The notes: a model not told the origin generated them from the sequence alone. A stretch of 64,000 bases of DNA from a virus (IMGVR_UViG_3300028413_000003:104465-168464); one strand, 5' to 3'; shown: positions 8,041 to 9,930, counted from the stretch's first letter. Numbers and translations: made by a program.

Positions 8041-8957
8041 AAGAATTATGGACAGACAAGTACCGGCCTAAAACAATAGATGGGTATGTGTTTCGCGACG
8101 ACCAGCAACACTCGCAGGTAAAACAGTGGATAACCGGAAAGTCAATTCCGCATTTGATCTTATCTGGTACAGCGGGCACAGGAAAGACGTCAATGGCTAA
8201 AATGCTGATACACGAGCTTGATGTAGAAGACATGGATGTAATGGAAGTTAACGCTAGTAGAGAAACTGGAATTGACTTCATTCGTGATAGAATTGTTCCG
8301 TTCCTCAACACTATTCCATGGGGTGATTTCAAGGTAGTACTGTTAGACGAAGCAGACCGGCTGTCACCGCAGGGACAAGATTCACTGAAAGGTATCATTG
8401 AACAGTATTCTCCGTATGCTAGATTTATTATGACCACCAATAAGCCTAACATGATATCTCCGCCGTTGCACAGTCGATGCTTGCAATTCCACTTTGCTAA
8501 AATTGACCAAGTTGAATTTACTGCAAGAGTGGCACATGTTCTTATAGAAGAAAAAATACAGTTTGACATCGAAACGCTGGACAAGTATGTTAAAATTACA
8601 TACCCTGACTTACGGAAATGCATCGGTCTTATACAAGAGAATTCGATCAATGGATCTCTTACCTCTGCTGAGAAAGCTGACACCGGAATAGCTGACTGGA
8701 AAGTTAAAATGGTTGACTTGTTTAAAGAAGGCAAGATACACGATGCACGAAAGTTATTGTGCGGAACTGTTCGTTCAGACGATATGGAAGAAATTTATCG
8801 TTGGCTGTACGACAACATCGACTTGTTTGGCGAAGAAGAAAAACAGCAAAACGCAACACTTATAATCAAGCAGGGCCTAGTGGATCATACACTTGTGGCT
8901 GATCCTGAAATTAACCTAAGTGCAACCTTAATTAGATTGGCAAGATTAGATGTCTGA
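8037..8957 (+). CDS. Clamp loader AAA+ subunit (RFC small subunit/T4 gp44-like)
   Basis: LWTDKYRPKTI, Walker A GTAGTGKT, EVNAS, Walker B VLLDEAD, SRC motif. Confidence 0.92.
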   Translation: MKELWTDKYRPKTIDGYVFRDDQQHSQVKQWITGKSIPHLILSGTAGTGKTSMAKMLIHELDVEDMDVMEVNASRETGIDFIRDRIVPFLNTIPWGDFKVVLLDEADRLSPQGQDSLKGIIEQYSPYARFIMTTNKPNMISPPLHSRCLQFHFAKIDQVEFTARVAHVLIEEKIQFDIETLDKYVKITYPDLRKCIGLIQENSINGSLTSAEKADTGIADWKVKMVDLFKEGKIHDARKLLCGTVRSDDMEEIYRWLYDNIDLFGEEEKQQNATLIIKQGLVDHTLVADPEINLSATLIRLARLDV

Positions 8958-9207
8958 TAGAAAATTAAAGTTTATTTGGAAAACAGTATTAACTGCTATA
9001 AAATTTCCGTTTTTGATTTATATAGGAGTACTTCCATTTATTACAATATTTGGGCTTGCTCGAGGAATGCCTTTTCTTCCGGTGATGCTTACCCTATTAT
9101 TAATTGTTGGAATAATTTCCGAAGTAATTAGTGCTATACTACAAGCCAGAGATGTATTATTTCTTGAAAATAAGGATATGATTGCTACACTAAAAGGCAA
9201 GGAATGA
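8950..9207 (+). CDS. Hypothetical membrane protein
   Basis: 85 aa, two predicted TM helices. Confidence 0.55.
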   Translation: MSDRKLKFIWKTVLTAIKFPFLIYIGVLPFITIFGLARGMPFLPVMLTLLLIVGIISEVISAILQARDVLFLENKDMIATLKGKE

Positions 9208-9338
9208 CGTATATTGTAAACAATTTGGAGGATACACTAAATGCATCACACATTACATAAACATACGCAAGTATGTTCCGATCAGGGCCGGCAGTCCTGT
9301 ATAGGAGGCTTTGGCGGACTATGACATATATTGTAAAC
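9204..9338 (+). repeat. Duplicated ferredoxin start; upstream copy opens an 18-aa mini-ORF (9204-9260)
   Basis: ATGACGTATATTGTAAAC (9204) vs ATGACATATATTGTAAAC (9321), 17/18 identical, both encoding MTYIVN. Confidence 0.7.
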
Positions 9339-9665
9339 GACGCTTGCATTATGTGCAAGTATACAGATTGTGTTGAAGTCTGCCCTTAGCCAGTAGATTG
9401 TTTCTACGAAGGAGAGAACATGTTGGTCATACATCCGGACGAATGCATTGATTGCGGAGTGTGCGAGCCCGAATGTCCTGCAGATGCAATACTTCCTGAC
9501 ACTGCGCCAGGAGCAGAAGAATGGGTCGAATTCAATCTCAAATATTCTGAGATATGGCCTGTTATTATTAGTAAGAAAGACCAATTGCCGACTGCTGTCG
9601 AAATGGACGGAAAAGAAGGTAAAATGAAATATTTTTCAAAGGAACCCGGAAATGAAGATGAATAG
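9321..9665 (+). pseudogene. fdxA: 7Fe dicluster ferredoxin (FdxA-type) with a 6-nt in-frame insertion containing TAG; pseudogene or recoded gene
   Basis: From ATG 9321 (SD AGGAGG): [56 protein letters not shown]; TAG at 9387-9389. Confidence 0.85.
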
Positions 9666-9930
9666 AATATGGAAGAAATTTTTTAGCACAGTGCTTGAGA
9701 CAATAGCAGTTGGACTAATATGGATTGCAGGCTGCGGCGCCATCTTTGGCATTATTAGTTCTACACTGTATTTTGGGTTAGGAGTAAGCAACATAAACAT
9801 TATAATGTCACTGTCATTTGTATTACCACTTGTTCTAGGAGGTATATCATTTGCATTGCGGATAGTTTATATAGAGTCTAAGTACGAAGTTGAAAAAGAA
9901 AATCAAAAATTAATGAGAGACATAAATTGA
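9652..9930 (+). CDS. Hypothetical membrane protein
   Basis: 92 aa, two TM segments. Confidence 0.55.

Follow-up and report, generated by a model that had tools for sequence, protein, structure and literature searches.

A six-base insertion, TAG CCA, interrupts the ferredoxin gene of a giant, T4-like phage directly after codon 22. Comparison with related loci indicates that these six bases (9387-9392) are almost certainly the conserved junction spacer at the right end of a homing-endonuclease cassette, and on the comparative evidence the canonical full-length ferredoxin would rather probably be made by a hop of tRNA-Pro over the stop codon. The explanation that we favour as a whole, and hold to be somewhat probable, combines three elements: a spacer that marks the right end of the cassette, a role for that spacer in immunity to the nuclease, and a tRNA-Pro hop that is probably assisted by an RNA helix. 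Positions are given in the window, which is the whole stretch of 64,000 nucleotides that was analysed, unless a locus is named.

The window is taken from an IMG/VR virus record of 251 kb that is estimated to be 71% complete. The ferredoxin gene occupies 9321-9665 on the plus strand, with a gene for a clamp-loader subunit upstream and those for DHFR and thymidylate synthase downstream; it consists of 114 codons and a final stop (9663-9665), and contains one internal stop, the TAG at 9387-9389. The DNA from 9381 to 9401 reads TGC CCT TAG CCA GTA GAT TGT, where spacer-free relatives have TGC CCN GTN. An earlier note on this DNA had described a 6-nt in-frame insertion in an FdxA-type gene, and that description is exact: the closest relatives among viral contigs, L002 (95% aa) and L003 (85% aa), both encode CPVDC and are without the six bases, and dropping the six bases from the window gene gives CPVDC as in L002 and more than 60 insert-free relatives. 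The rest of the gene, its cysteines and its Shine-Dalgarno sequence had also been called intact, as they are; all nine cysteines are kept, in the same pattern as in uninterrupted relatives, and GGAGG is present at 9304-9308. The protein has the FdxA/7Fe architecture, with Fer4-type 4Fe-4S dicluster domains and DUF3470 (4.5e-14, Pfam). When the two window segments are joined without the spacer, they give the pattern CxxCxxxxCxxxCPVDC...CxxCxxCxxxCP of the Azotobacter-type FdxA (Fer4 + DUF3470), although, unlike that gene, the window gene is phage-borne and interrupted. A BLASTN search of GenBank phages with the ferredoxin region gave no match, and neither did Rfam for 8900-9800 at E<=1. Two small ORFs flank the gene, at 8950-9207 (85 aa) and 9652-9930 (92 aa). 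Both have a hydrophobic, membrane-like look and no Pfam match, and the stop of the first overlaps the relic ferredoxin ATG at 9204.

The insertion is found in many other contigs. Viral contigs were scanned with the pattern TGY CCN TAG NNN GTN GAY TGY TTY TAY GA, which was found in 13 further contigs; versions of the same pattern with TAA or TGA were found in none of the viral contigs, and the TAG pattern was absent from 185,579 prokaryote species (one genome per species). When any six bases were allowed at the site, the viral contigs returned the same 13 only, and the metagenome contigs returned 45 matches, of which 40 are ferredoxins, all with CCN TAG CYN, and five are unrelated chance matches. 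Six-base inserts made of two sense codons were found at the site in neither the viral nor the metagenome collection. Extra alleles came from loci fetched via the nuclease protein described below and from a variable-gap scan; some of these have other downstream residues and some have a 5-nt spacer. In total, 43 distinct alleles were obtained from 72 fetched loci, and every one is either CCN-TAG-CYN or CCG TAGCG: CCT TAG CCA (14 alleles), CCT TAG CTT (11), CCT TAG CTA (9), CCT TAG CTG (1), CCT TAG CCG (1), CCG TAG CCG (3), CCG TAG CTG (1) and the 5-nt form CCG TAGCG (3). The downstream frame is intact, with all cysteines present, in each allele that is not cut by a contig end. An assembly error is excluded by the presence of the same kind of insert at the same site in many independent assemblies (13 viral and 40 metagenome contigs), and the insertion, being common to 43 alleles, is not private to this genome as it might have been.

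The surroundings of the spacer identify it as one end of an element. In loci with an intact nuclease, the full element is made up, in order, of resident ferredoxin codons 1-23 with a stop, a gene for a 257-aa nuclease, a GGAGG ribosome-binding site, a duplicate of codons 1-22, the TAG CYN spacer, and the resident gene from codon 23 onward; the point of insertion is exactly between CCN (Pro22) and GTN (Val23). An intact 257-aa ORF adjoins the spacer-bearing ferredoxin in L087, L109, L125, L130, L147 and L150-L156, and in the first four of these loci the resident codons 1-23 and stop are seen about 890 nt upstream; what is found in the window and in most other loci is a nuclease remnant. All insert-bearers have a common conserved sequence directly upstream of the ferredoxin ATG, which in L087 is the 3' end of the 257-aa ORF. 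The intact ORF in that locus (L087:3658-4431) matches PHROG 681, endonuclease (5.6e-36), and PHROG 559, HNH endonuclease (4e-26). Around 70 full-length relatives of the nuclease carry PF05265 (DUF723) in precomputed annotation, and farther relatives add PF14311, T5orf172 and MUG113. No significant match to the ORF was obtained in direct Pfam and NCBIfam scans and a PDB sequence search was likewise empty; the family assignment is based on the PHROG matches together with the precomputed PF05265 in homologues.

The features of the cassette and junction in the window are listed in Table 1. Aligned with the intact loci, the relic of codons 1-6 is what was left upstream at cassette insertion, with the nuclease gene deleted later. 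The deletion junction in L084 is identical to that in the window, and this locus too retains just six resident codons; other loci have different nuclease deletions, and therefore the nuclease gene has decayed repeatedly. By exact scan the remnant motif was found in 11 of the 13 other insert-bearing viral contigs and in just one insert-free ferredoxin, and the conserved leader accompanies the spacer in 35/35 alleles with upstream sequence. The insert-free case, L002/L099 (IMGVR_UViG_3300037285_000088; ferredoxin start at L002:3001), still has the nuclease remnant and the leader but lacks the spacer. Its gene is identical to that of the window over nt 1-43 and then divergent, so that it looks like a locus where recombination removed the spacer or a conversion tract ended short of it. 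A small hairpin, AGGG...CCU, is found inside the nuclease remnant (9284..9298, plus strand), with GC at its pair 27/39 in 10 sequences and AU in 8, a compensatory change.

Table 1. Coordinates of the cassette, junction and helix features in the window
Feature	Position	Strand	Remarks
Relic of the resident ferredoxin start, codons 1-6 ATGACGTATATTGTAAAC	9204..9221	+	Six codons kept, fused to nuclease remnant
3' remnant of nuclease gene, last 26 codons and stop (TAG 9302-9304)	9224..9304	+	Aligns with the C-terminus of the L087 ORF
Shine-Dalgarno GGAGG of the cassette-borne ferredoxin start	9304..9308	+	Overlaps the nuclease stop; kept in nearly all alleles
Helix 5' strand: leader GGCGGACU, then AUG and codons 2-3	9313..9328	+	
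Cassette-borne duplicate of ferredoxin codons 1-22 (first reading segment)	9321..9386	+	
Helix 3' strand: codons 17-18 and 19.3-22.1, UGUGUU..AGUCUGC C, ending at the take-off codon	9369..9384	+	Third-position homozygosity 0.88-1.0, against 0.31-0.61 in insert-free genes
Take-off codon CCU (Pro22)	9384..9386	+	CCT in 36/43 alleles, CCG in 7/43
UAG stop	9387..9389	+	Invariant (43/43 alleles), directly 3' of CCN
Landing codon CCA, proposed site of peptidyl-tRNA-Pro re-pairing	9390..9392	+	In the family CCA, CCG, CUA, CUU, CUG; GCG in the 5-nt form
Resident ferredoxin codons 23-end (second reading segment)	9393..9665	+	Intact unless cut by a contig end

Since the spacer sits exactly at the point of cassette insertion, between codons 22 and 23, it may have a role in immunity. 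Joining the duplicated codons 1-22 to codon 23 onward rebuilds the CP|VDC sequence, and the spacer would keep this from being an intact target of the nuclease; by analogy with T4 MobA and the gap of gene 60, it probably protects the element's genome from the element's own nuclease. In T4 the gene 60 gap blocks self-cleavage by MobA (bioRxiv 10.1101/2022.08.31.505936). One of the alternatives raised in the earlier note, a transposon-like footprint that inactivated the gene, is borne out in its first part, since a mobile-element junction is what the six bases represent, but not in its second, as the gene looks not to be inactivated.

The nine bases made up of the take-off codon, the stop and the landing codon vary in a restricted manner. 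Changes are seen only at the take-off wobble base, at landing position 2, which is C or U only, and at the landing wobble base; across at least six mutational steps the CC of the take-off codon, the TAG and the C of the landing codon never changed. Either base at landing position 2 is pairable with G35. The two wobble positions are matched, in that the landing codon is NNG in 7/7 alleles with a CCG take-off codon compared with 2/36 with CCU (Fisher p = 1e-6, uncorrected for phylogeny), and the CCG alleles belong, as judged by their leaders, to at least four cassette lineages. A tRNA-Pro(CGG) reads G-ending codons only, and a U34 tRNA-Pro reads A, U and G; the matching of CCG with NNG would be expected if one peptidyl-tRNA must pair with both codons. 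The phage encodes a tRNA-Pro(UGG), which can read both CCU and CCA.

Other features of the landing codon are less favourable to a hop. It specifies proline in 18/43 alleles, and the remainder have CUN or GCG, where two of three positions are paired or a G-U pair is needed. The Leu codons CUA, CUU and CUG need this G-U pair at the middle position, and the 5-nt form lands on GCG with a first-position mismatch; both count against the hop. The earlier note had asked whether relatives keep matched codons around the stop: the UAG is kept in 43/43 alleles, but strict matching is not required, CUA, CUU and CUG being common landing codons. The 5-nt spacer, CCG TAGCG GTA, occurs at L154:1342-1443, in L155, at L188:10212-10313 and at L193:1998-2099. 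These represent three diverged alleles (L154/L155, L188 and L193), in which the downstream frame is shifted with respect to the start, yet is intact and conserved; they differ mainly at synonymous sites, and downstream of the spacer L154 and L193 show eight synonymous and no nonsynonymous differences.

The junction is also constrained as RNA. In insert-bearers the third-codon positions are frozen at codons 2, 8, 16-18 and 20-22 only, with a homozygosity of 0.60-1.0 at these codons against 0.30-0.61 in 61 insert-free genes, and the remaining codons are equally variable in both groups. A long-range helix accounts for most of the frozen positions, which fall on its two strands; in this helix the leader GCAGAC(U), lying between the Shine-Dalgarno sequence and the AUG, pairs with (A)GUCUGC directly abutting the take-off codon. 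The partner of codons 17-18 is ambiguous and could be either the AUG with codons 2-3 or codons 14-15. In 35 alleles the 18 helix pairs are 87% paired, compared with 31-44% for slid controls, and for the 13 pairs of the core (columns 17-32) the value is about 98%. Four helix pairs have changed on both sides, in a compensatory manner, and in L150, where the nuclease is 54% identical, GCAAGAA stands opposite UUCUUGC, a compensatory switch at four positions. The same core helix was recovered independently by RNAalifold, and window 9296-9400 folded alone also gives the helix (MFE -36.6 kcal/mol, z = -3.83). As G-U pairs are abundant, the helix is one of sense-strand RNA. Together, the synonymous freezing and the compensatory changes indicate, by comparison of alleles, selection on the RNA of the junction, and the frozen third base of codon 8 in insert-bearers is a hint that all 22 codons of the segment fold together into a single rod.

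Within the 22-codon segment, the two Cys codons of the CxxC motif form an inner hairpin, UUGCA...UGCAA, at 9342-9358 (codons 8-13). The distance from the GGAGG to the ferredoxin AUG is 12 nt (window 9304-9323), which is unusually far, and the bases between them are those of the helix 5' strand. Three further pairings were considered. One hairpin immediately before the take-off codon and another that spans the gap, with CCU-UAG-CCA in its loop, are each about 88% paired, the first with zero compensatory change and the second with no covariation, and neither was relied on; a pairing of the stop with the leader (GCUA with UAGC) was rejected as a general feature since only about half of the alleles have it.

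In the mechanism that we propose, the ribosome would pause when peptidyl-tRNA-Pro sits on CCU and the A site holds UAG; the tRNA would then unpair and the mRNA slide by 6 nt, after which re-pairing of the tRNA on CCA would let decoding restart at GUA. One proline would thus be specified by 9 nt. Help for the hop probably comes from the helix, which links the leader and start region with the 7-16 nt immediately before the take-off codon, and the helix might act in several ways. It could re-form on the exiting mRNA and bias the slide forwards, in line with a proposal made for gene 60 that pairing in the exiting mRNA is a driver of forward bypassing (bioRxiv 10.1101/2024.12.09.627546); it could fix the landing register as a ruler 7-13 nt behind the landing codon; or it could gate initiation or space ribosomes so that trailing ones do not interfere. 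It counts against a helix-assisted hop that the 3' strand of the helix lies inside the ribosome at take-off, so that the mechanics are not obvious. Alternatively, the helix could be a translational regulator unrelated to bypass. A hop from CCU to CCA that yields the canonical protein, as had been put forward for this gene, is supported, in that all of the comparative tests run favour a stop-hop over the alternatives offered. Outside the window, the phage record also contains a tmRNA (G000:C1:12621-13005) with the tag peptide ATDNANTVEMALAA, which could matter for ribosomes stalled at Pro-UAG, and a region (G000:C1:27344-87738) with 28 tRNA genes that include tRNA-Pro(UGG) and tRNA-Leu(UAG), together with one weak prediction with an 8-nt anticodon loop (ttgt).

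The alternative that survives best, although we consider it unlikely, is that the cassette killed the gene. The product would then end at the UAG after 22 residues, the ferredoxin would be dispensable, and the downstream ORFs would be leftovers of recent invasions by a costly selfish element. In the ferredoxin tree insert-bearers turn up in many places, often with insert-free genes as their sisters, as would fit invasion that was recent and repeated; furthermore, ferredoxin is an auxiliary gene, the window genome tolerates many selfish elements, and L002 suggests that the spacer can be lost by recombination. The downstream dN/dS among insert-bearing alleles is 0.03-0.25, with synonymous divergence often saturated, but because insert-bearers are scattered beside insert-free sisters much of this divergence may predate each invasion, which weakens the dN/dS argument. 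The window and L084 can be compared after invasion since they have the nuclease deletion in common: the relic and remnant are now 80% identical (20% diverged), yet the spacer and the ORF are kept in both, with a dN/dS of 0.10 and no stops. A second lesion is found in 0/43 alleles, while the nuclease gene has independently decayed or been deleted in most loci, and the unit of new start, leader and spacer has been removed by deletion in none of 35 alleles. A dead gene would also leave unexplained why the nine-base junction varies only at tRNA-compatible positions with its wobble matching maintained, and is at odds with the selection on junction RNA to which the frozen and compensatory positions point. 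Re-initiation at Met34 (window 9420) was considered separately and rejected, since several alleles, L083 and L087 among them, lack this Met.

Less probable again is readthrough of the UAG by a suppressor or near-cognate tRNA in a slow Pro-UAG-C context, which would give CP-X-P-VDC with two extra residues. Termination is known to be slow when proline occupies the P site and a stop the A site, the C after the stop adds to this, and the C after TAG is invariant; it is also conceivable that a loop insertion would be accommodated, as the insert follows directly on a ligand Cys and precedes a Cys that is not a ligand in Azotobacter FdI. Against this, a CUA anticodon is found in 0/28 tRNA genes of the 251-kb record (71% of the genome by estimate), which shows neither stop-codon reassignment nor suppressor decoding of TAG, and TAG is a working terminator that ends 9/92 ORFs of at least 100 aa in the window. 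Of the nine codons one base away from TAG, eight are sense codons, and a change to any of these would raise the output of the protein with two extra residues to 100%; if that protein worked, such changes ought to have spread, but the viral and metagenome collections contain none. Since there is no change of TAG to sense and no sense two-codon insert at the site in the collections scanned, the longer protein is probably not what is selected. Furthermore, the 5-nt spacer cannot be repaired in frame by readthrough and therefore simple readthrough is ruled out for those alleles, and the matching of CCG with NNG is not explained by it. Amber suppression, a further alternative in the earlier note, is disfavoured on these grounds. 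TAG was not enriched between same-frame ORFs, and the genome-wide screen of one-stop ORF pairs was too noisy to show other recoded genes.

We give slightly less weight still to the possibility that the helix and stop form a regulatory device, in which the start codon is hidden and what is made is a 22-residue peptide or a throttled trace of protein, any full-length form being due only to background events that nothing assists, for example a -1 slip on C-CCG where the spacer has 5 nt. Hairpins that sequester the ribosome-binding site are common around phage homing-endonuclease genes and provide a precedent, and the helix does cover the AUG and the long, 12-nt spacer before it, but the conserved TAG, the landing C, the wobble matching and the abutment of the 3' strand on the take-off codon would all be left unexplained, and the -1 slip works for the 5-nt form only and would add two residues.

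The stop-hop reading has established precedents in the gene 60/MobA cassette and in synthetic stop-hops (PMC5009743; bioRxiv 10.1101/2022.08.31.505936). As in T4, a homing-endonuclease cassette is found in a conserved phage gene, where the nuclease often decays and the bypass insert stays; an untranslatable insert lies at the end of the element and opens with a UAG that follows the take-off codon immediately, and one tRNA can read both the take-off and the landing codon of the window. In T4 self-cleavage is prevented by the insert, whereas for the ferredoxin cassette the same would hold by the analogy drawn above. The differences are also considerable. The gap is 5-6 nt rather than 50 nt, take-off and landing are on Pro (CCN) rather than Gly (GGA), the host gene is a ferredoxin rather than a topoisomerase, and the nuclease is of DUF723 type, with T5orf172/MUG113 as distant relatives, rather than the HNH MobA. 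[quoted passage not shown] Neither homology to MobA (HNH) nor a 50-nt gap with take-off stem-loop and mini-SD is found here; judged by these sequence features, the ferredoxin cassette is an analogue, not a member, of the T4 gene 60/MobA type.

Synthetic stop-hops in E. coli (Weiss et al. 1987 and O'Connor et al. 1989, per PMC5009743) resemble the ferredoxin case in that matched or near-matched codons flank a stop, 9 nt are read as one amino acid and re-pairing is 6 nt downstream. They were, however, engineered and low-level and had no stimulatory signals (PMC5009743), whereas the ferredoxin case is natural, with 43 alleles and a covarying helix. The byp elements of Magnusiomyces capitatus are likewise short mobile inserts in coding genes that translation skips, sometimes with imperfect take-off and landing, but they are mitochondrial, occupy dozens of sites, have an unused A-site codon and are apparently independent of context (PMC5009743); the ferredoxin insert is at one defined site, is read by a bacterial-type ribosome, has a UAG stop and is linked to a nuclease gene. 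A 2016 review stated of natural stop-hopping that 'no occurences are known', with synthetic constructs only (PMC5009743), and a literature search found no later report of a natural stop-hop.

A broader proposal can be made more tentatively, and we would not yet press it. The alleles may represent a natural, selected family of 5-6-nt stop-hops in which an intramolecular helix between the SD-AUG spacer and the take-off region (7 nt abutting the codon), and not a nascent peptide or SD:anti-SD pairing, drives or measures the slide; this would be a minimal, portable bypass module by which homing-endonuclease cassettes disguise their junctions in essential motifs, and one of several such phage families.

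Programmed bypassing has so far had essentially one well-studied bacterial example, T4 gene 60. A natural 6-nt hop, if true, would be a far simpler system in which to dissect take-off, sliding and landing, and natural variants are built in, with three take-off/landing wobble classes, two spacer lengths and helix covariants. It would also serve as a warning for annotation, as such genes are called as pseudogenes or truncated ORFs; in the insert-bearing loci gene callers report the 78-85-aa downstream piece only. For the phages themselves, if the hop is true, homing-endonuclease cassettes could enter a small protein at its most conserved motif and yet spare the protein.
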